Shown here piece after piece: positions 26,402-39,315 of a stretch of 64,000 nt of DNA; positions within the stretch are counted from its first letter, which is position 1, and every line of letters starts with the position of its first letter. Location: the NCBI GenBank assembly GCA_031426555.1, contig JANPLN010000015.1, forward strand, positions 96,001-160,000. The letters are read 5' to 3'. Under the pieces are notes generated by a model, which worked only from the letters and a program-made list of their open reading frames with translations, did no database searches and had not been told where the DNA came from. The position numbers and the translations under genes are program-made. Origin of the DNA: Bdellovibrionales bacterium (lineage in GTDB: Bacteria > Bdellovibrionota > Bdellovibrionia > Bdellovibrionales > JAGQZY01).

Positions 26402-27801
26402 GTAACCTTGATGAACTAAAAGAATTTAATCCCTCAAATAACAAGGACGAGCAGCGGATTGTTTTCAACAAAGCCAAGGCGTTTCCATCTCCTATTGCCG
26501 ATGAATCGCTCATAGGCCTCACTGGTAAGTTTGTGAGCGCGTTTGAGCCATATACCGAGGCCGATCAGCACGCCCTCCTCATTCAGTTCTTAGTAGCTTT
26601 TGCTAACATTGTCGGAAGGTCGCCATATATCGCAATAGGGGCCTCTAAGCAGCATTTAAACCTCTTTACGTGCGTTGTGGGCAACTCTTCCACCGCAAGG
26701 AAGGGTACGAGCTGGGACTGCGTTGGGATGGTTTTTAAAGCCGTGGATCCTAAATGGTGGGACGAGAAGAGAGTTTTTGGTTTGGGTTCGGGAGAGGGCC
26801 TCATCGCATCCGTTAAAGATCACGAGATCACGGACATTATGAGTATAGACTATGAGACCATAAACGATAAGCGGGCGTTAGTTATAGAGTCCGAACTAGC
26901 TTCCATGATAAATTCCATGCGACGGGAAGGGAGCACGCTTTCGGCCAATTTTAGAAACGCTTGGGACTCGGGTGACCTCAGAATCACAACCAAGAAAGAC
27001 TCGATCCGTTCGACAAATGCTCACATCTCAATGATTGGACACTGCACAGGCACTGAGCTTCAGCGTTTAATCACGGACATTGATATCAATAATGGCCTGG
27101 CGAATAGATTTATCTGGGTTTGTGCGAAAAGATCAAAGTTATTGGCGCTCCCTAAAGAGCCAAATCCTGTAGAGATTGCAACATTAGTCGAATCGTTAAA
27201 ACAGGCCAAAGAGTTTGGTGCAAAACAAACTAAGCTGACGATGAATGAGGAAAGCGAACAGCTGTACACAGAATTGTATCCAGCGCTAGTGCGAGAACGC
27301 CCAGGGATTCAAGGCGTTTTGTCTGCCCGAGCCGCTCCGATAATCCTTCGGCTATCCGGCATTTACGCAATCTTAGATAAAAGCGTAGAAATAAAACCTC
27401 AACATTTGAAGGCCGCAGTCGGTGTTTGGGAATACTCCGAGAAAAGTATTCAGTACATATTTGGCGAAAAGACGGGGAATAAACTGTCTGATCGACTGTT
27501 CGTGGCGCTTCAGAATAAACCCGGCGGGTTTACTCAAACCGAAATAAGCCGAGAGGTCTTTCGCGCAAACGCTTCCTCCGAGAAAATCGCTGAGGCTATT
27601 GAGTATCTTTCAAATCAAAATATTATCCGAAGCGTTGAGGAAACATCTGACGCGGGTCGAAAGGTGATTCGTTGGAGATTAGCCTCTACGAACTACGAAA
27701 TGAACGAATTTAACGAACTCACAGAATTCGTAAATTCGTCGAATTCGTACAATTCGTACTTCGTACCGGTGAAAAACGAGGGAGAAGAGTATGTATCTTA
27801 A
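26398..27801 (+). CDS. DUF3987/YfjI-like replicative helicase (AAA+) with C-terminal winged helix
   Basis: NL...VG.S..ARKG.S Walker-A variant, SGEGL, E.E, L...WD and NG..NRF motifs; overlaps the primase stop. Confidence 0.8.
   Translation: MSNLDELKEFNPSNNKDEQRIVFNKAKAFPSPIADESLIGLTGKFVSAFEPYTEADQHALLIQFLVAFANIVGRSPYIAIGASKQHLNLFTCVVGNSSTARKGTSWDCVGMVFKAVDPKWWDEKRVFGLGSGEGLIASVKDHEITDIMSIDYETINDKRALVIESELASMINSMRREGSTLSANFRNAWDSGDLRITTKKDSIRSTNAHISMIGHCTGTELQRLITDIDINNGLANRFIWVCAKRSKLLALPKEPNPVEIATLVESLKQAKEFGAKQTKLTMNEESEQLYTELYPALVRERPGIQGVLSARAAPIILRLSGIYAILDKSVEIKPQHLKAAVGVWEYSEKSIQYIFGEKTGNKLSDRLFVALQNKPGGFTQTEISREVFRANASSEKIAEAIEYLSNQNIIRSVEETSDAGRKVIRWRLASTNYEMNEFNELTEFVNSSNSYNSYFVPVKNEGEEYVS
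27687..27766. repeat. Inverted iteron array (4x ACGAA then 5x TTCGT), candidate replication origin
   Basis: TACGAACTACGAAATGAACGAATTTAACGAA...ATTCGTAAATTCGTCGAATTCGTACAATTCGTACTTCGTAC inside the helicase 3' end. Confidence 0.7.
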
Positions 27802-28033
27802 GAAAATGTCCGAGAGCACTGACGCAAGTTTGCAGGAGGCACTCTACCAAAGAATGAGTTTGGCCATTTCTAGAGTTGCCGAGCTTGTAGACGAAAACAC
27901 CGTGAACAGTCGTGGATTTAAAGCCTTACAAACACATACCAACAAAATAGAAACCTCATGCATAGCTGGTATTTCCAAATGGGAAGCGGCTTGGATTGAA
28001 GGTTTAACTAAACTACAAAGGAACGCACAATGA
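27791..28033 (+). CDS. Hypothetical protein (island)
   Basis: GGAG SD; overlaps both neighbours. Confidence 0.55.
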   Translation: MYLKKMSESTDASLQEALYQRMSLAISRVAELVDENTVNSRGFKALQTHTNKIETSCIAGISKWEAAWIEGLTKLQRNAQ

Positions 28034-28629
28034 AAACAAAGAAAATTATTAAAGCTAAAAGCAAGGCTCCACTGATAACAGTTGATAGCCCCAATATCTC
28101 CGACGAACTGCTAAATAAAATAAAGGAAATTAAGTTCGTGCCAAAATTCGAGACGAGTGATGGCGCTCTAAATCCGAAGGGAGATCAAGCCGCTTTTGAT
28201 CGCTACGTTGGTTTATGTAAATCCACTGGTGCCGTAAGCACAGACTTACAGAATCATTTTATTCGACAGTTGTATGCACTTAAAGGTGGCTCGAGTGACA
28301 GCCACCTAAACGCAGCCTTAGCTTTTCTACACAGCATGAAGCCCACTGACGAGATGGAAACAATGCTTGCTGCTCAAATGTTTGTAGCCCACGACATGAC
28401 CATGAATACTGCAGCTAACGTGAATCGATGCGAAGACATGGAGATGAATGATCGATATGTAAACAGGTTCGCCAAGCTTACGAACGTATTTCGAGACAAT
28501 TTAGAGGCGTTGAATAAGCATAGAGGAAAAGGTCAGCAAAAAGTGACCGTCGAACATGTTCACGTGCACAGTGGCGGGCAAGCAATAGTTGGCACAGTTG
28601 AGGGGGGAGGGGTCCATGGGAAAAAGTGA
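28030..28629 (+). CDS. Phage/satellite-type hypothetical protein of the kind seen upstream of HGGxSTG genes
   Basis: P.D..E.MLA.QM...H and R.KGQQKVTVEHVHVH.GGQAIVG motifs. Confidence 0.7.
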   Translation: MKTKKIIKAKSKAPLITVDSPNISDELLNKIKEIKFVPKFETSDGALNPKGDQAAFDRYVGLCKSTGAVSTDLQNHFIRQLYALKGGSSDSHLNAALAFLHSMKPTDEMETMLAAQMFVAHDMTMNTAANVNRCEDMEMNDRYVNRFAKLTNVFRDNLEALNKHRGKGQQKVTVEHVHVHSGGQAIVGTVEGGGVHGKK

Positions 28630-28906
28630 TGAAACACCCCATGCAAGCCGAGGATGGCTTCGCAATGGTAATCCCCCGGGTGATTTGTCCAATCTCCCTA
28701 AGTGTGGTGCTAAAACGCGTTTAAAGGGCTTATGTAAGGCTCCAGCAATGAGAAATGGGCGCTGCCGTATGCATGGAGGTAAAAGCACCGGCCCTCGTAC
28801 GGAAGAGGGAAAAGATCGAATCAGCAACGCCAACTTTAAGCATGGTGAATATTCTCAAAAGACCTTGCTGATTAAAAAAACGCTTAAGAAATTTTCCAAT
28901 GTGTAG
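28616..28906 (+). CDS. HGGxSTG-domain protein (CCCH-type putative Zn-binding)
   Basis: CGAKTR....C..PAM.NGRCRMHGGKSTGPRT.EG, then KHG.YS; strong GGAGGGG SD before ATG 28616. Confidence 0.88.
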   Translation: MGKSDETPHASRGWLRNGNPPGDLSNLPKCGAKTRLKGLCKAPAMRNGRCRMHGGKSTGPRTEEGKDRISNANFKHGEYSQKTLLIKKTLKKFSNV

Positions 28907-28962
28907 TTTAAAACTTTTAATTTTTGAGACAAACAAATGTATAATAATAAAGGGGGTATTCA

Positions 28963-29940
28963 ATGGGGTTTTTAAAAAAAGTTTTAGGTAGCGGAATCAA
29001 AGTGGCATCTGGTGGATTAATTCGAGACAAGCATATCAATGGCGCAACAGATTCCATAACGGACGCAATCGGAATAACAAATCGCGCTGGCGATAAAGCA
29101 GCAGCAGCTCAAGCGCAAGCGGCACGAGATGCAAACGACACAACTTGGCGCATGTATAATCAAGGAAGACAAGATCAAGAGCCATGGAGACAAGCTGGAG
29201 CAAAGTCTCTAAGCGAGCTCTCGGGGCAGATGGGGGATTTAACTCGAAAGTTTACGTTAACAGATTTCCAGCAGGATCCTGGTTATCAGTTCCGAATCGA
29301 CGAGGGTCAAAAAGCCCTTGAGCGAAGCTCAGCTGCGCGCGGTGGACTTATGGGCGGCAGAACGCTGAAGGAACTTTCGCGCTACGGCCAAGACTTTGCT
29401 TCGAACGAATACACGAACGCCTATAATAGATTCAATAACGACCGCGATCAGAGATTTAACAAACTATCTAATCTCGCTGGCATTGGACAATCGAGTGCCG
29501 CACAGATTGCTAACCAAGGAAATCAGGCAGGGCAGCAAGTCAGTGCAAACCAGATTGGGATGGGGAACGCAGAAGCTGCAAATATTATGGGGCAGTCAAA
29601 TAGGCTTAATAGCTTTATCGGGCAAGTAGGCGGGGCTGCAATCGGGGGCATGATGGGCGGAAGTAAGCCTCCCACGATGTTTAGCGATGAGAGACTTAAA
29701 ACAGACATTGAACTCGTTTCTAAAGAGGACCTTCAAGAACTCAAGGATAAGATGCGCAGATTGAAATTAAATGGCAAAAACGAGACTCACGACGAAAGCG
29801 ATTTAATTGAAGTGATGGCACAAGAGCTTGCGCAAACTAAGCTTGGGAAATATGTAGTGAGCTATGACGCCGATGGGTACCGAATAGTTAACACGCACAA
29901 ACTTATGTCCCTCGTGCTTGCGACGTTTGCCGCGGCTTAA
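28963..29940 (+). CDS. Phage DNA-ejection/pilot protein (P22 gp7-like) with C-terminal peptidase-S74-like chaperone domain
   Basis: Gly/Ala/Gln-rich; AAAAQA.AA, PW.QAG...L and PGYQF...EG..A..RS.AARGGL..G.TLK.L..YGQ..A motifs; tail SDERLKTDI...MAQEL...DGY..V. Confidence 0.75.
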   Translation: MGFLKKVLGSGIKVASGGLIRDKHINGATDSITDAIGITNRAGDKAAAAQAQAARDANDTTWRMYNQGRQDQEPWRQAGAKSLSELSGQMGDLTRKFTLTDFQQDPGYQFRIDEGQKALERSSAARGGLMGGRTLKELSRYGQDFASNEYTNAYNRFNNDRDQRFNKLSNLAGIGQSSAAQIANQGNQAGQQVSANQIGMGNAEAANIMGQSNRLNSFIGQVGGAAIGGMMGGSKPPTMFSDERLKTDIELVSKEDLQELKDKMRRLKLNGKNETHDESDLIEVMAQELAQTKLGKYVVSYDADGYRIVNTHKLMSLVLATFAAA

Positions 29941-30022
29941 CAATTGGGATGCAACATACGGCCAGTGAGTGATTTCGCTGCTGGATCGTTGCAAATGGAT
30001 TCTCCAACATGCCTTAATCAGG

Positions 30023-30523
30023 TTAAATTGCCGCAAAAACCAATTCTCCTTTGGTCATTTTGAAAGTTAAACGTCTCATCGGCGATTCTGGTTCGTTCCG
30101 TATAAAATTAATAATTTCCTCATAATTACGGTCAGGAGCTTTTATTAATGCATGAGTTCTAATGGTTTTATCGATCGATTCTGAATGCTTTTGTTTATCA
30201 TTTTCGATCCTCGAAAGTGTTTTCGGATTCATTTTAATTATATCTGCATAGTCCTCTGTCGAATGACCTAGATATTTTCTAATAAAACGAATTTGGTCAC
30301 CAGATAGTAGCCCTGGCTGATGAATAGCCGTCAGCTCAGCAATCATCTTATGCAATGAAGAAATCTTTGGGATCTCAGTAAACGTTTCTCCACAGTCATC
30401 GCACTTGAGCTGTGGAATGTCTTTCAACGTAACAAACGGAGCTCCTCCGAAGTCATACTTAATGGTAGCTTTGATTTTTTTCAGCTTCTTTTTTGAATCG
30501 CAAGAATAACAAGTATCTGTCAT
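30023..30523 (-). CDS. MqsA/YgiT-type Zn-ribbon plus Xre-HTH antitoxin-like protein
   Basis: CYSC...CDDCGE Zn ribbon; L.G.QIRFIRK.LG.......A.......TLSR.EN HTH. Confidence 0.85.
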   Translation of the reverse strand: MTDTCYSCDSKKKLKKIKATIKYDFGGAPFVTLKDIPQLKCDDCGETFTEIPKISSLHKMIAELTAIHQPGLLSGDQIRFIRKYLGHSTEDYADIIKMNPKTLSRIENDKQKHSESIDKTIRTHALIKAPDRNYEEIINFIRNEPESPMRRLTFKMTKGELVFAAI

Positions 30524-30526
30524 AAC

Positions 30527-30835
30527 CTAATCCTTTCTCCAGCAAGTGACTATTACAATTTTAGTGCCTAAATCATTGAAAGAAACGACAACTCCAATTT
30601 TATTGGTTTCGACTTTATATCTATATGAGCCGTCTTTCTCTTCTCCTGGGTATACATATTTACTGGCGGAAAGCAGGACATTGACCAAATCAATCAGCAC
30701 TAAATTTCTTTGGGTCATCCTTTTTTTTGCATATTCGCCAATAACGAAATTAAAATCGCTGGCAGCAAGTTGGCTGATGCGTTTTATAACTTCGGCAGTA
30801 TTTAGCTTAACCTGCTTGTAGCTCGATGGTGACAT
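30527..30835 (-). CDS. DUF4258-like (RelE-fold) putative toxin
   Basis: A..RM..RN....D..NVL, YRY.V and IVIVT.W motifs; directly upstream of the MqsA-like gene; ATG at 30835. Confidence 0.7.
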   Translation of the reverse strand: MSPSSYKQVKLNTAEVIKRISQLAASDFNFVIGEYAKKRMTQRNLVLIDLVNVLLSASKYVYPGEEKDGSYRYKVETNKIGVVVSFNDLGTKIVIVTCWRKD

Positions 30836-30870
30836 TAAGTCACTATACCGTAATTTGTCACCAGCGTCAA
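30827..30870 (-). promoter_or_regulatory. Sigma70 promoter TTGACG-17-TATAGT with overlapping inverted repeat TGGTGACA/TGTCACCA
   Basis: -35 at 30870-30865, -10 at 30847-30842, ATG 7 nt downstream; IR arms at 30827-34 and 30856-63. Confidence 0.7.
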
Positions 30871-30995
30871 ATTTCCTGGACCTAGCCTCAATACGATACA
30901 TACAACCATGCTTACATTGGCCTTAAACAATTTATATTACGTGTGTGAGATTGATCATTTAGTGGCTAGTCACGTAAAGTAAGATCAGGCTTTTA

Positions 30996-31181
30996 TCATG
31001 GCCTTTCAATATATAGCTTTATAAGCTCTTCCACCACATTACTTGCTGGAACGCCATCGCAAGCATTTTGAAATTCCTTATAAAGGCTCGCGGACAAATA
31101 CAGAGTTACTTTCTTTTTATCTTTGCCTTCTTGTTTAAGTTTACCCAGTATCTCTTTTCTGCTGATTTTCTTCATGATCAT
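30996..31181 (-). CDS. Small CopG/ribbon-helix-helix-like DNA-binding protein
   Basis: KKVTLYLS..LY.EF...C....AS.VVEELI..Y pattern. Confidence 0.55.
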   Translation of the reverse strand: MIMKKISRKEILGKLKQEGKDKKKVTLYLSASLYKEFQNACDGVPASNVVEELIKLYIERP

Positions 31182-31276
31182 CCAATCGTCTAAACTTTAT
31201 ACATATAAAGATACATACTCTTATATGGCAAAGTGTATTGCAATGTGTTATGCTGCCCTAAACATAGGAGATACGT

Positions 31277-31540
31277 ATGAAAGCACTAAGTGCGAATTTT
31301 AAAGAGAACCAACTTCCCGATTTCGATGCTGCGATGGGTGTTGTGATGGATACACATGTTCGAATTAAAGCGTTGGCCACCATTTTTCAGCACATGAATA
31401 ACTCATGCCACACGCTAGATAAGCCAAGCGACTTAATGGGTATTGGAGATATTTTAAAAGATTATTCTGAGGATCTTTTGCTGGCTTACCACTCGATGGA
31501 CAATTTTGCGCGTTCGAAAAAAGATGAGAGTAAAGGATAA
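31277..31540 (+). CDS. Hypothetical protein (island cargo)
   Basis: AGGAG SD; 87-aa ORF. Confidence 0.65.
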   Translation: MKALSANFKENQLPDFDAAMGVVMDTHVRIKALATIFQHMNNSCHTLDKPSDLMGIGDILKDYSEDLLLAYHSMDNFARSKKDESKG

Positions 31541-31543
31541 GAT

Positions 31544-32017
31544 ATGAAATCAATTAACCAACTTCCCAATTATAAAGAACTACTGCGTAAAGCCACAGCC
31601 CTCACCATGAGCCTAGGGGATTTACTCACTGAGGTGGATACCTTTAAAGATCAACTCCCAGAAATTGAACGGTACTCTGACGGACTTAAAACAACCAACA
31701 TTATCGATTATCTCAACAATGTGGAAACAACTCTTCACTCTAGGATAGATGGTCGGCCCGAGCCCCTGATCGTCGGAGAGGATATGTGGGGTCTGTGCTA
31801 TGAGCCTGGCTATTGCGACAAATCCCTTCTCAGAGATCGAACGTTCAACATGGAGGAGTTAATAAGTATGCGTGACTGGTTAAACATGACGATTGAATTT
31901 CATGAAAAGCACCCTAAGTCTAAATCACAAATGCAGAGAAGAAAGAAGCAAAACGCCTTACTAGAGAAAACAAAAAGAGTCGCAAAGCCGAAAAGATTTC
32001 AAAAAATCCGACCCTAG
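31544..32017 (+). CDS. Hypothetical protein with basic C-terminal tail (island cargo)
   Basis: AAGGA SD, 3 bp after the previous stop. Confidence 0.65.
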   Translation: MKSINQLPNYKELLRKATALTMSLGDLLTEVDTFKDQLPEIERYSDGLKTTNIIDYLNNVETTLHSRIDGRPEPLIVGEDMWGLCYEPGYCDKSLLRDRTFNMEELISMRDWLNMTIEFHEKHPKSKSQMQRRKKQNALLEKTKRVAKPKRFQKIRP

Positions 32018-32367
32018 CGCCCACAGCTAATGGATACTGTGTACAAAGATTCCTTATCTTGACCGAGCCCTATGGTTGAGGAGTCGTAATGGTTTGGACT
32101 TTTTGAAGCAGCACTAAACCCGCATGTCGCATTCATGGTGACGTATGTTGCTACTGATTTGTGTATGCACATAAGATGTCTGGTTTCAGGTTTACTTTTT
32201 TTCGGGTCGATTTTGTCTAATTCACAGTTCCACTCGCCAGCTGTAAACTTATAACTGTCATCTCCAACCGTTTTTTGCACGCCCTTCAAATAAACGTCCC
32301 ATTTATATTCGGATGCGGAACTAGCAGATAGGTACATCAGAGACATAATTATGATCAGTGGTTTCAT
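32014..32367 (-). CDS. Small secreted protein with four Cys (island cargo)
   Basis: Signal peptide MKPLIIIMSLMYLSASSA; four Cys in the mature part. Confidence 0.6.
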   Translation of the reverse strand: MKPLIIIMSLMYLSASSASEYKWDVYLKGVQKTVGDDSYKFTAGEWNCELDKIDPKKSKPETRHLMCIHKSVATYVTMNATCGFSAASKSPNHYDSSTIGLGQDKESLYTVSISCGR

Positions 32368-32439
32368 AGATACATTGTTAGCGAATTGTAAAATCAGTTG
32401 AAGCGATAACGACTTGACCCGAGTAAGAACTGGTCTTCA

Positions 32440-32462
32440 GGTTGTAGGTACAAGTGTAGGTA
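32440..32462 (+). repeat. Candidate integrase arm-type sites TGTAGGTA x2 (right)
   Basis: GGTTGTAGGTACAAGTGTAGGTA, about 55 bp inside the right att. Confidence 0.7.
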
Positions 32463-32516
32463 CGTCTCAGGCCGAAACGTTAACCTGTTATTTTTACAGC
32501 TAAATAAGAATCTTAT

Positions 32517-32608
32517 TGGCGGAGAAAGGCGGATTCGAACCGCCGGAACCGGTTTCCCAGTTCGGTTGTTTAGCAAACAACTGGTTTCAGCCACTCACCC
32601 ATTTCTCC
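32517..32608 (-). tRNA. tRNA-Ser(GCT)
   Basis: GGAGAAA acceptor stem, anticodon arm GTTGT-TTGCTAA-ACAAC, long variable arm, GGTTCGAATCC, encoded CCA. Confidence 0.95.
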
Positions 32609-35826: not shown

Positions 35827-36990
35827 ATGATGAAAAGGAAACTGGTTTTATTTTTTGCAAGTTTACTACTTGTGAATGTGTCGTCGGGGAATGTTGAGCA
35901 AGCCTATCTGGAAAACCAGCTTGTTTTGATTTCTGATTATGATGAAACTCTCACCGGTCGAGCCTGGAACACGCTTTGGTTTCTAAAAAAAATTCCGTCA
36001 ATTCAATCTTATTTACAAATTGCAGCGATTCCGACATTAATTCCTGATGCGACATTCGAGTCTCTACCGAATTCGGTTGCCGTAACCTCAAGAGAAGTTG
36101 GCGAAATTTTAGGGGAGCGGTTAGCAGTGGTGGAGGCGAATGGTAAAATTACGCCAAAGTCCTCGGGCCTCTACGTGCTTCCGGCCCTCCCAGGAACTCC
36201 CGAAAGATCACAACCGCAGTCGTTTATTCCTGGGCTCTATCGTGTGACCGAAGAAACCTGGGAACGCTTTCGACCGGACCCGAACAATAACTATGTTTTG
36301 GAGGACAACGAACGCGCACGGATTTTTGAACGAGCCACAGGGGAATCCCGATTTGGCCCCTCATTTCCGATGGTTCGGTTACTTACAAATTCTCGAAAGT
36401 CAGTGGACCACATCCATATCGTGACGGCGCGGCCCCAATCTGCAATCGAGTTTCAACCTTTGTTTCAAAGTTGGCAAAGAGAGGGTCTTATCAAGAACAT
36501 TCAAGGTCGAAGGTACACCTTAGACCGGCTTTACTCTCTCTTAGCCGCCATCAATATTTATGGGGTGGGTGAGGGGTTGAGCCTTCTTTACGGAGACTCC
36601 ATCACAGAGCGTAAGATTCAAGTGGTAAGAGATCAAATTATTAATCAGTACCTGCTTTTGGCAAAGCAGCAGCAGAAAAAATTCACGGTGGTGGTTGCCG
36701 AGAACGATCCGCGAACAGTGGCAAGTTATGTAAGAATGCTGCAGGAACTTATGGGAATACCAGATTATCAAAAACATTTTGATTTTATCTTTCTGCATGC
36801 GGGAACAGATTTCGAAGTCTCGCGCAGCGGCTTACCTTCGCGGTGGGTGAGAATTTTCGGAGCCTTCATTTTGCCGTTAGAACTCAACGAAGTAAAATTT
36901 TTGTCCAGTAAGACGGAGCCTGAAACTAAAAAGTTGCCAACAAATGTATCGACTTTGGGAGCTGGCGTGTCCTGCTCGGTTCTATTTTAA
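35827..36990 (+). CDS. Secreted HAD-like phosphatase of unknown substrate
   Basis: Signal peptide; LISDYDETL (DxDxT), IVTARP (motif II), K in ERK, VVAENDP (motif IV-like); C terminus SCSVLF. Confidence 0.55.
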   Translation: MMKRKLVLFFASLLLVNVSSGNVEQAYLENQLVLISDYDETLTGRAWNTLWFLKKIPSIQSYLQIAAIPTLIPDATFESLPNSVAVTSREVGEILGERLAVVEANGKITPKSSGLYVLPALPGTPERSQPQSFIPGLYRVTEETWERFRPDPNNNYVLEDNERARIFERATGESRFGPSFPMVRLLTNSRKSVDHIHIVTARPQSAIEFQPLFQSWQREGLIKNIQGRRYTLDRLYSLLAAINIYGVGEGLSLLYGDSITERKIQVVRDQIINQYLLLAKQQQKKFTVVVAENDPRTVASYVRMLQELMGIPDYQKHFDFIFLHAGTDFEVSRSGLPSRWVRIFGAFILPLELNEVKFLSSKTEPETKKLPTNVSTLGAGVSCSVLF

Positions 36991-37002
36991 GGGGGTTTAA
37001 AA

Positions 37003-39315
37003 GTGAATAAAATCGTAATTGTTATTCTTTTGGTTATATTGCAAAACACGGCCCAGGCGCGACGTTGCGACTCGGTATTTTTAAAATCGACCTTGTCGCA
37101 ATTGGAACTGTTGTCTCAACGGGAGAAGTTAGCGGCAGCAGGAGTTGATTTTTTTGCAAACTTTTTGCGGATTCCAACGAACACGGAGTTGGCAAAATAC
37201 TCTGACTTTAAGGTTAAGGCGTCGCTGGTCGATGAAGTCATTGGCGACCGGCACCTTTTTTGGGAAAATGCTTTTGCGCAGAATCCAAAAAAACTCGAAG
37301 ATGCTCGGATGCTGATGATGGTGGCCTACCATGATTTTATCAAAGGCGCCAAAAGCCAAGGAGTTACGCCACGTTCTGCGACATCCGAAGAATTCTTTGC
37401 GCAGTTAATGAATACTTACCGCTATCTCGACAAAGAAAGCAGTCGCGGTGAATTTAAATGGAAGCATGTTCAGCGTATTTTAGGCGAACGAGTGCGACAG
37501 GCCGGCGAAATTCCTTACCCAATCCTATTTGAAGGCGTGGAAGGCCTGCGCCGAGCCACACAGGAAAAGTTTCCCAATTCGTTCAAGGGGATTCGCGATG
37601 CAAGATTTGGAATCGCTTACAACAAAGAAACTTTAAAGCTCATCGTAAACAAGTACCGGGGAGTCATTGCTGTTTCGATTTTAGGCGGAGTTCCCTGGGA
37701 TATTGGGCGTTTGCAGTTTGAATCTTTAAAGTTGTTAGCAAAAGCAAGAAATCTTTTGATTGTGGTCAAAGAGGTGAATGGCGAAACAGATTTGATCCCA
37801 CGTGAAATTTTGGATTATGAACACACAAGAATACTAACCAACACTGTGGATCTGGGAGATGAACTCAGAATTTTAGGTGGATTGGTGGTGATACCCACAA
37901 ATCCAAACCCTCTTACCGGTCTACAAGATGGCAGGCAGTCGCGGGTGCGCGGTCAAACGCAAATCGTTTTTGGTACGCAAAGAACCATGAAAACCGTCGC
38001 CACCGAACTCAATCATATCTCGTCGCACGATATTTGGTCCACTGGCACGCTCAACGATCCAGAGCTTCCGTATGCAAACTACCGATCAAGTCGGGTGACT
38101 ACGCTCGCCAGTGCGCGCTTAATTAATTCAGTGGTGATCGCCGAAAAGTCCGATGCGCAATCGGGCCCTAACAACCGAGGCGCTCCTGGCCGCTGGCACG
38201 TTCGTGCTGCGGATTTTGAAAACGCTACATCGGACGCCAAGTATGGAACGTGGGACGCCGGTACGGCTGATAATTTTATGTTTTATCCAGCAGATGGTTC
38301 GCAACCCAGACCGATTCCTGCTGTGGCTGTCGTGCCTGGCGATTACCATTCTGGTTTTGAGGATCCGCGTTTTCTGCGCGCTATTAAAGAGCAAATTCTC
38401 GACGAGTCTCGCCGTGCGGGACGCCCTGTAGAATTTATGCGCTATCACGACTTCTACGATATTGGATCAGTAAGTCCTTACGACTCTCCAAGTTCTAAGG
38501 CGATTAAACATCTTATGGGTGAGCTCGATTTACAACATGAAATCAACCGAGGCCGTTCCGACTTAAATTCTCTCCTTGTGTCAGAGCCGCAAATGATCGC
38601 GATCCTTTCAGAGGCCGACAATCACCACATTTGGTTAAGCAGAATGTTTAACGACATGAACGCACTCAACGATCCTATCAATGGGCCGTTTCTTGCAAAG
38701 CTTCGCGAGATGCACCTTCAAGGATTTGGTCCTTTGGATTACCTTCTTCGGCGGCAAAAAGATTTTGATGAAGCCACGCCCGAAATGAATATGCGCATGC
38801 GTTTGCTGGGAAGAAACGTTTATGTGGAAAATCCCGATCGAGTGAGAGTTCTTCGGGAGGGAGAGTCCCTGTTTGTTGGCCCCGTGGACCGCGCAGTGAA
38901 CATCGCTCCCCATGGTCACAAAATCGCAGGCGGGGCGCGAGGCGGCGCCTCGTTAGTTCCTCATGCAAGTGCTAACTCGCGCGTGATTGTCGGGCACACT
39001 CACACAGCAGCTATTTGGGGGAATGCTTACAATGTGGCAATGTCGGTGCGGTTGCGAAGTCAGCCCTATGCTCTTGGTGGCTACAGCGCACAAAAAAATT
39101 CAGTGGCGGTGGTTTACTTAAACGGTGCGATTCAACTGTTCAACTTTGATCCGTTCATTGGTCGCTTAACGCCCGATCTCTCGGCTCCCACATTACCTGG
39201 CCGAAGTTTTTTTACGTCCGAACCGTTTGTGATACCCGATCCGAACGATCGCATTATCGACTCTGGAGCCACAGCCACCACACTTACAAATTACAACTCA
39301 AAGTCGGTGCGATAA
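37003..39315 (+). CDS. Secreted phage-T5-A1-like metallophosphoesterase (putative nuclease)
   Basis: Signal peptide; calcineurin-like motifs GDYHSG, HDFYD, DNHH, HGH, GHTH; IPT.PNPLTG, STG, WHVR and VY.NG..Q segments resembling the A1 family as I recall it. Confidence 0.65.
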   Translation: MNKIVIVILLVILQNTAQARRCDSVFLKSTLSQLELLSQREKLAAAGVDFFANFLRIPTNTELAKYSDFKVKASLVDEVIGDRHLFWENAFAQNPKKLEDARMLMMVAYHDFIKGAKSQGVTPRSATSEEFFAQLMNTYRYLDKESSRGEFKWKHVQRILGERVRQAGEIPYPILFEGVEGLRRATQEKFPNSFKGIRDARFGIAYNKETLKLIVNKYRGVIAVSILGGVPWDIGRLQFESLKLLAKARNLLIVVKEVNGETDLIPREILDYEHTRILTNTVDLGDELRILGGLVVIPTNPNPLTGLQDGRQSRVRGQTQIVFGTQRTMKTVATELNHISSHDIWSTGTLNDPELPYANYRSSRVTTLASARLINSVVIAEKSDAQSGPNNRGAPGRWHVRAADFENATSDAKYGTWDAGTADNFMFYPADGSQPRPIPAVAVVPGDYHSGFEDPRFLRAIKEQILDESRRAGRPVEFMRYHDFYDIGSVSPYDSPSSKAIKHLMGELDLQHEINRGRSDLNSLLVSEPQMIAILSEADNHHIWLSRMFNDMNALNDPINGPFLAKLREMHLQGFGPLDYLLRRQKDFDEATPEMNMRMRLLGRNVYVENPDRVRVLREGESLFVGPVDRAVNIAPHGHKIAGGARGGASLVPHASANSRVIVGHTHTAAIWGNAYNVAMSVRLRSQPYALGGYSAQKNSVAVVYLNGAIQLFNFDPFIGRLTPDLSAPTLPGRSFFTSEPFVIPDPNDRIIDSGATATTLTNYNSKSVR

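Follow-up and report, generated by a model that had tools for sequence, protein, structure and literature searches.

A predicted exported T5 A1-like protein and a HAD phosphatase form a conserved chromosomal unit in Bdellovibrionota and may act on prey DNA

In bacteriophage T5, the A1 protein is necessary and sufficient for degradation of the chromosome in Escherichia coli, as reported in an excerpt of a recent preprint (bioRxiv 10.64898/2026.04.02.716235). A1 has so far been treated as a cytoplasmic phage protein for host takeover whose chemistry is unproven. On the side of predatory bacteria, Bdellovibrio bacteriovorus releases DNases with signal peptides into the bdelloplast, according to part of a published report (PMC7925074). 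In the open-licence literature, we found no paper on A1-like proteins in Bdellovibrio or on a cellular or exported A1. Here, we describe two adjoining genes in a stretch of 64,000 nucleotides (the window; positions 96,001 to 160,000 of contig JANPLN010000015.1, assembly GCA_031426555.1) from a Bdellovibrionales bacterium, one of which encodes an A1-like metallophosphoesterase and the other a phosphatase of the HAD superfamily. Judged by sequence, the larger protein belongs to the already known A1 family, in a predicted exported, HAD-coupled form.

Both open reading frames (ORFs) lie on the forward strand, at 35827-36990 (387 aa) and 37003-39315 (770 aa), with a spacing of 12 bp; each start codon, GTG in the case of the 770-aa ORF, is preceded by an AGGGG-type stretch. 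These are the two co-directional genes described in a first-pass annotation of the window, and all the metallophosphoesterase, A1-type and HAD motifs cited there are present in the translations. The 770-aa protein contains the motifs GDYH (446-449), HDFYD (482-486), NHH (540-542), HGH (637-639) and GHTH (664-667) as well as the A1-type segments IPTNPNPLTG (297-306), STG (346-348), WHVR (398-401) and VYLNGAIQ (704-711). It matched phrog_1745, the family that T5 A1 itself matches at 8.5e-244, with an E value of 1e-28 over residues 277-716. Moreover, a profile of 46 family members aligned with residues 92-556 of T5 A1 in hhalign with a probability of 99.93% (E 3.5e-36, 438 columns), and the aligned span includes the A1-specific part of the protein that precedes the metal site. 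By tblastn, the 770-aa protein matched 121 phage records, the best of which is annotated as 'T5 A1-like' and shows 23% identity, and its ESM Atlas neighbour is named 'T5 A1 family protein'. Pfam and NCBIfam contained no family for either of the two proteins, and sequence searches of the PDB with the pair returned nothing meaningful. In total, these sequence comparisons indicate that the 770-aa protein is a true homologue of T5 A1 beyond the generic metallophosphoesterase core, in agreement with the likeness that the first-pass annotation had proposed.

The A1 core (residues 215-724; 37645..39174), which comprises the A1-specific region and a calcineurin-like binuclear metal site, is the part that aligns with T5 A1 92-556. 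Its metal ligands are D447, H449, D483, N540, H541, H637, H665 and H667. All of these except H665 are invariant in 44/44 exported, 28/28 phage and 4/4 signal-less rows of the family alignment, and H665 is kept in 42/44 exported rows. The ligand pattern is the calcineurin-like D-x-H, H-D, N-H, H, H-x-H, and the ten positions checked are identical to those in T5 A1. The structure model of the protein, built from 11 sequences, is of moderate quality (pLDDT, predicted local distance difference test, 65). Its N-terminal region (37081..37644) is all-helical with a pLDDT of mostly 70-90, and a helix-turn-helix (HTH) family, Sigma70_r3, was matched by 10/46 family members and not by the 770-aa protein itself; model and family matches suggest that this region likely consists of DNA-binding HTH repeats. 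In one relative (L072:4840-8361), the exported A1 is 1174 aa long and the helical N-terminal region is duplicated, as seen from a second profile match. In a library of viral structures, the best matches of the model were full-length proteins (E 5.7e-20, 608 aa; E 2.8e-16), followed by generic metallophosphoesterases; by its equal length, the 608-aa protein is presumably the A1-like protein of an Ochrobactrum phage. The fold search against the PDB gave no match at E <= 0.001 and its weak rows were generic metallophosphoesterases (Vps29, lambda phosphatase); with a model of pLDDT 65, the rows for Mre11/SbcD and PolD nucleases were likewise weak (SbcCD at rank 42, PolD at rank 46, E ~0.27). The C-terminal tail (39175..39312), which is typical of the exported clade and often ends in D-Q-aromatic, has diverged in the 770-aa protein and is modelled with low confidence.

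The 387-aa partner contains DYDET at 37-41 (motif I, D37-x-D39), TAR at 200-202 (motif II, T200), K263 (motif III) and END at 292-294 (motif IV, E292-N-D294). Across the aligned HAD members, the Asp of motif I, the Lys of motif III and a Cys at the C terminus never vary (33/33), and the second Asp is kept in at least 90%; with fragments included, the motif II Thr is present in 31/40 and the motif IV Glu in 28/40 rows. The model of the partner has a pLDDT of 85, and its top structural matches are HAD domains with the Rossmannoid HAD fold. The best of these were Pnkp1 (Z 8.4) and the 3'-phosphatase of T4 Pnkp (Z 8.3); matches to PNKP 3'-phosphatase domains extend over 131-137 residues at a root-mean-square deviation of 3.2-4.0 and 10% identity, with a Z margin that is modest over the level of a common fold. 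The ESM Atlas neighbours of the partner are mostly viral clusters, and one phage cluster is HAD-named at 0.91. No curated Pfam cut-off was reached, and 0/33 HAD members matched any PHROG family at E 0.05. The first-pass annotation had suggested that the pair could be a functional analogue of A1 and Dmp, the deoxynucleoside-5'-monophosphatase of T5. The HAD phosphatase motifs that it cited stand and the fold agrees with them, while homology to Dmp is not seen: the BLASTP E value is 2.4, hhalign gives 12.8% over 16 columns, and motif I alone is in common. These sequence and profile comparisons rule out that the partner is an orthologue of Dmp (phrog_415). The structural matches rather suggest that it belongs to a PNKP-3'-phosphatase-like family and is at most a functional analogue of Dmp. 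The HAD family matched 222/401 genomes of the phylum, and five records of uncultured jumbo phages also match it. The host genome itself contains a signal-less HAD paralogue (98% probability; L144, C40:21506-22375), for which no Pfam or PHROG family was found. ORFs of ~940-985 aa containing the HAD domain occur at L153:2451-5258 (-) and in G228, G083, G094 and G189; the one examined, at L153, has a signal-like start, a C-terminal cysteine and no adjoining A1.

Signal peptides were called by a heuristic based on hydrophobicity and the cleavage site, together with conservation in the family. For the HAD protein, a Sec signal peptide is predicted at 35827..35886, with an uncertain cleavage site; the one predicted for the A1-like protein, of the Sec/signal peptidase I type and ending in A-Q-A, spans 37003..37059. 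In relatives, the N terminus is hydrophobic in 42/42 A1 proteins at loci of this type (lipobox-like in none, Tat-like in one) and in 32/33 intact HAD proteins, which lack a Tat motif. Signal peptide and cysteine are retained in distant members at 18-26% identity. By contrast, inspection found a signal peptide in 0/28 phage A1 rows; two of these had scored as hydrophobic, one because of an over-long ORF start and the other because of the first strand of the core. Searching contigs of IMG/VR with an alignment of the close relatives, we found no exported A1. A search of cluster representatives, in a library without taxonomy, returned 2994 A1-like proteins at E <= 0.001, of which 150 were listed; a signal-like start is present in 104 of these 150, and 99 have both signal and C-terminal tail, 37 neither and 14 only one of the two. 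Both proteins are thus predicted to be exported via Sec, and the signal peptides noted earlier for this pair are predicted across the two families.

Each of the two proteins has a single cysteine. In the A1-like protein it stands directly after the signal peptide, as C22-x-x-V-F (37066..37080), and in the HAD protein close to the C terminus, as C-x-x-L-F (36973..36987). This placement is conserved: the cysteine follows the signal peptide of A1 at 42/42 loci, none with a lipobox, and lies within the last 32 residues in 33/33 intact HAD proteins. Likewise, a cysteine after the signal is found in 102/104 signal-bearing A1 representatives vs 11/46 without signal, and distant A1 members retain just the cysteine and a hydrophobic residue at +4. 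Among the 726 predicted exported ORFs of the genome, C-x-x-[LIV]-F occurs 20 times at the mature N terminus and 14 times at the C terminus, whereas interior windows give an expectation of 0.7 and 0.3, respectively; signals are over-called by the heuristic, and a few of the matches are false. By eye, 35/67 motif matches were picked as signal-bearing, and 16 of these tagged proteins have a Pfam match at E <= 0.01. The tagged domains that depend on ATP are a double AAA ATPase, an SF2 helicase and two amidoligases, one of them with ATP-grasp. Loci encoding tagged ATP domains in the host genome include L105 (C25:125362-127905), L110 (C65:16456-20862), L107 and L112. Other tagged proteins are an EEP nuclease/phosphatase, a DUF559 endonuclease-like protein, a nucleoside hydrolase, a 5'-nucleotidase and, below the cut-off, a ParB-like nuclease.

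The periplasm contains no ATP. For tagged ATP-dependent enzymes, the cytoplasm of another cell is therefore the destination that makes most sense, and tagged ATP-dependent proteins with signal peptides are candidate effectors for the prey cytoplasm. In this way, the tag hints at delivery into the prey cytoplasm. A disulfide specific to the pair, considered as another role for the two cysteines, is weakened because many unpaired proteins carry the tag. We found no paper in the open-licence literature on a C-x-x-[LIV]-F tag or on a pair of A1 and HAD proteins, and excerpts of the review literature on predators name no tag-like route of delivery into prey.

To place the pair within the phylum, 401 genomes of the phylum and 14 controls were searched with phrog_1745, which matched 48/401 and 0/14, respectively. 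Loci were retrieved for 45 of the 47 other genomes, weak short matches in G166 and G399 being left out. In the resulting 46 genomes, 42 A1 proteins have a hydrophobic N terminus and four are signal-less. A HAD gene lies directly upstream of A1 at 38/42 exported and 0/4 signal-less loci; two of these 38 HAD genes are split into two ORFs and three are cut by the end of a contig. One further genome came from searching with the family profile (47/401); the pair is present in it, so that 39/43 genomes with an exported A1 have the HAD gene. The gap between the genes is -10 to +18 bp in 31/38 measured pairs and -4 in 16/38. Distances among HAD proteins and among A1 proteins correlate (Spearman 0.77, 0/2000 permutations, 31 pairs, kin not being independent), and nearest neighbours agree in only 12/31 pairs. 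In relatives, the pair is flanked by housekeeping genes at stable loci. We conclude that the two genes belong together as a conserved unit on the chromosome. Similarity to A1 beyond the core, signal peptides and co-occurrence in relatives, on which the first-pass annotation had staked its proposal, were all found; the shared cysteine tag and the spread of the family across the phylum had escaped it. In family f21 (L034, L035, L036, L039, L042, L049, L053, L069), the unit occupies a fixed site and the HAD gene is missing in 4/8; by eye, a murein-ligase-like gene and a small outer-membrane-like gene stand on one side of it, and a squalene-hopene-cyclase-like gene on the other.

Trees were computed on 445 columns of the A1 core from an alignment of 76 rows (44 exported, 28 phage, 4 signal-less); a more careful tree omitted L077, which has a long branch, and one duplicate, and three partial sequences stand outside both trees. 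The 44 exported rows form one side of a branch with a support of 94 in the Shimodaira-Hasegawa-like approximate likelihood ratio test (SH-aLRT), and in the careful tree, with 43 rows, the support is 96 by ultrafast bootstrap, which had not fully settled, and 89 by SH-aLRT. When rooted on T5-like phages, an assumed root, the exported clade falls among phage and signal-less A1 proteins, and those of Ochrobactrum phage OC and of two IMG/VR entries are close to it. The simplest reading of these trees would be a single capture of A1 from a phage by a bacterium. Among 348 ORFs from the surroundings of 28 viral A1 loci, none matched the HAD profile significantly (best E 0.24), so that there is no support for both genes having been captured together from a phage. 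Four signal-less A1 genes without HAD (L047, L052, L054, L055) have long branches near the exported clade and are possibly prophage copies.

The proposed chromosomal, non-prophage setting of the pair agrees with its surroundings. The gene upstream is selO, preceded by a ferritin-like (Dps-type) gene and a SIS-domain gene further upstream; downstream lie an HTH-like gene and one of the photolyase family. A small mobile island at 27791-32608, 3 to 6 kb upstream, ends near tRNA-Ser (32517-32608), and tRNA-Ser and tRNA-Arg separate it from the pair, which lies outside it. The island contains a gene of a phage 'DNA ejection' family at 28963-29940 (phrog_598, E 2e-47), 5.9 kb upstream of the pair, and, at 30023-30901, a zinc-finger/HTH gene with a partner, which we take to resemble a toxin-antitoxin module of the MqsA type. 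The GC content of the two genes (0.485 and 0.457) is that of the genome (0.465 +/- 0.030). Compared with the orthologues in G370, the large gene has 349 synonymous and 86 non-synonymous codon differences and the small gene 148 and 109, respectively, and by these counts both genes look to be under purifying selection. Elsewhere in the host genome, C23:29349-48484 is an integrated element of the conjugative type that has a VirB4-like gene beside a heavy-metal efflux cluster. This VirB4-like gene was considered as an export route and dismissed, its neighbours being, by eye, conjugation-like and integrase-like.

Taking the sequence evidence together, we lean, without strong conviction, towards the pair being an exported module that degrades prey DNA, with the HAD protein stripping phosphate from the products. 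Under this proposal, an ancestor would have captured a phage A1 gene once and the gene would then have gained a signal peptide. Both chains would cross the inner membrane unfolded through Sec, and we propose that the nuclease is for this reason never active beside the predator's own chromosome. The lone-cysteine tag would route both proteins from predator to prey, where the helical N-terminal repeats would hold double-stranded DNA and the two-metal site would cut it, as proposed for T5 A1. The HAD protein would remove terminal or mononucleotide phosphate, giving nucleosides and phosphate for uptake, and prey transcription and defences would meanwhile collapse. A bolder version, which we consider conceivable and still rather doubtful, is that a so far undescribed two-step route brings Sec-exported proteins that bear a terminal C-x-x-[LIV]-F tag to the cytoplasm of the prey, and that a domesticated A1 with its phosphatase is among these effectors and erases the prey chromosome in minutes.

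Several observations weigh against degradation of prey DNA by the pair. In an excerpt of the T5 preprint, the nuclease activity of purified A1 is described as yet to be tested, and A1 might instead activate a host nuclease (bioRxiv 10.64898/2026.04.02.716235). The signal heuristic is loose, flagging 843/2635 ORFs, and the tag is also found on S9 peptidase, trypsin-like and GH2 domains, which are compatible with the periplasm, and on a thioredoxin-like domain. The predatory lifestyle of the host organism is a weak point, as it is inferred from Bdellovibrionales relatives and from gene content; the genome has four secretins, HMG-CoA reductase and a match to a Flp-like pilin below the cut-off. 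The genome also has purF, so that prey nucleotides are not required. The four loci that have an exported A1 and no HAD lie in the same gene surroundings; relatives with these surroundings have retained the HAD gene, which was thus probably lost in place at the four loci. Moreover, nine of 10 intermediate HAD matches retrieved have no adjoining A1, and 6/9 of these have a hydrophobic start; such losses and exported HAD proteins without A1 indicate that the coupling is not obligatory. Finally, the spread is patchy, with an exported A1 in 43/401 sampled genomes, with the pair in 3/4 genomes of its own genus and 0/6 of the sister genus, and with two A1 matches, both signal-less, and no exported copy among the 53 genomes of family f2; the pair is therefore not a core function of predation.

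Instead of being delivered to prey, the pair could act in the cell's own periplasm or in the medium, where it would scavenge DNA and nucleotides from outside the cell or destroy the DNA of phages or plasmids during its passage through the envelope. We regard this as unlikely, though deserving serious attention: Sec-type signals alone lead only to the periplasm, the patchy spread is defence-like, and the tagged 5'-nucleotidase, S9 peptidase and GH2 proteins function outside the cytoplasm. However, the tag is also carried by AAA, helicase and ATP-grasp proteins, which need the ATP that is absent from the periplasm, and the neighbours at the stable loci are housekeeping genes and not a defence island. 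A second alternative keeps export to prey and drops the DNase. The A1-like protein would act on another phosphoester (signalling nucleotides, RNA ends or phosphoproteins) or trigger a prey nuclease, and the HAD protein would repair or remove 3'-phosphate ends in the manner of PNKP. The top matches of the HAD protein are indeed PNKP 3'-phosphatases, the weak rows of the PDB fold search were generic metallophosphoesterases, A1-like genes of other phages lie among replication or structural genes, and direct nuclease activity of T5 A1 is unproven as far as the excerpted preprint goes (bioRxiv 10.64898/2026.04.02.716235). We nonetheless hold it to be improbable, because the family has HTH-like repeats that speak for DNA, the A1-specific region is retained together with the metal site, and T5 A1 alone suffices for DNA loss in vivo according to the same excerpt (bioRxiv 10.64898/2026.04.02.716235).

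We give little credence to a role of the HAD protein in immunity or as a chaperone, in which it would be exported along with the A1-like protein and bind it, perhaps via a disulfide between the lone cysteines, and would not be a second catabolic enzyme. Gene order, tight spacing, co-inheritance and the presence of exactly one cysteine per protein would fit, and part of a published account describes periplasmic immunity proteins of Bdellovibrio for its own secreted enzymes (PMC13689555). Conserved HAD catalytic residues, exported A1 proteins without HAD at four loci, exported HAD proteins without A1, and the tag on many unpaired proteins all speak against it. The idea of a prophage remnant in decay, or of signal peptides that are chance features, hardly deserves belief and is already largely refuted: the mobile island 3 to 6 kb upstream and the split HAD genes at two loci are outweighed by the recurrence of the pair in relatives, the single exported clade, the genome-like GC content, the apparent purifying selection, and the conservation of signal and cysteine at 18-26% identity set against 28/28 signal-free phage A1 proteins.

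Should the pair act on prey DNA, as we favour, it would represent a phage weapon domesticated for bacterial predation. More than 100 divergent, predicted exported representatives provide natural variants for probing A1 chemistry and, being exported, may prove less difficult to express than T5 A1, which is toxic. The shared tag, present also on ATP-dependent enzymes, offers a concrete handle on the delivery of enzymes into prey.

Among known systems, T5 A1 (T5.004, YP_006832.1, phrog_1745) is homologous to the A1-like protein over residues 92-556 and shares its metal ligands and a helical N-terminal region. At ~22% identity, the A1-like protein differs by an added signal peptide, the lone-cysteine tag, a longer N-terminal region and a C-terminal tail, and its gene is chromosomal, non-prophage and preceded by the gene of a predicted exported HAD protein. 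PNKP 3'-phosphatase domains (T4 Pnkp, 5uj0/1ltq; Pnkp1, 4xrp) are the best structural matches of the partner, which unlike PNKP has no kinase domain, carries a large insertion and is predicted to be exported. The B. bacteriovorus DNases Bd0934, Bd3507, Bd1244 and Bd1934 resemble the pair by description; part of the report describes them as nucleases with signal peptides, of which Bd0934 and Bd3507 reach the prey compartment (PMC7925074). T5 Dmp (YP_006829.1, phrog_415), which falls in a PHROG named 'polynucleotide kinase', resembles the partner in being of the HAD superfamily, in DxD, T-A-R and an acidic motif IV, and in the location of its gene close to A1 or directly beside it. The partner comes from a different HAD family, is predicted to be exported, lies upstream of A1 and lacks significant similarity to Dmp beyond motif I. 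The pre-early A1/A2/Dmp system of T5 is phage-encoded, cytoplasmic and located with A2 in the first-step-transfer region. The pair does not fit this description, and no A2 gene was seen among its conserved neighbours, which lowers the case that it is a T5 system and not the case that it works like one, a likeness that is an analogy at most. In Vibrio phage Thalassa, dmp lies 19 bp after A1, so that the combination of A1 and a HAD phosphatase occurs more than once. In total, the sequence comparisons indicate that this pairing arose twice, in T5-like phages and in Bdellovibrionota, and that the likeness is convergent.

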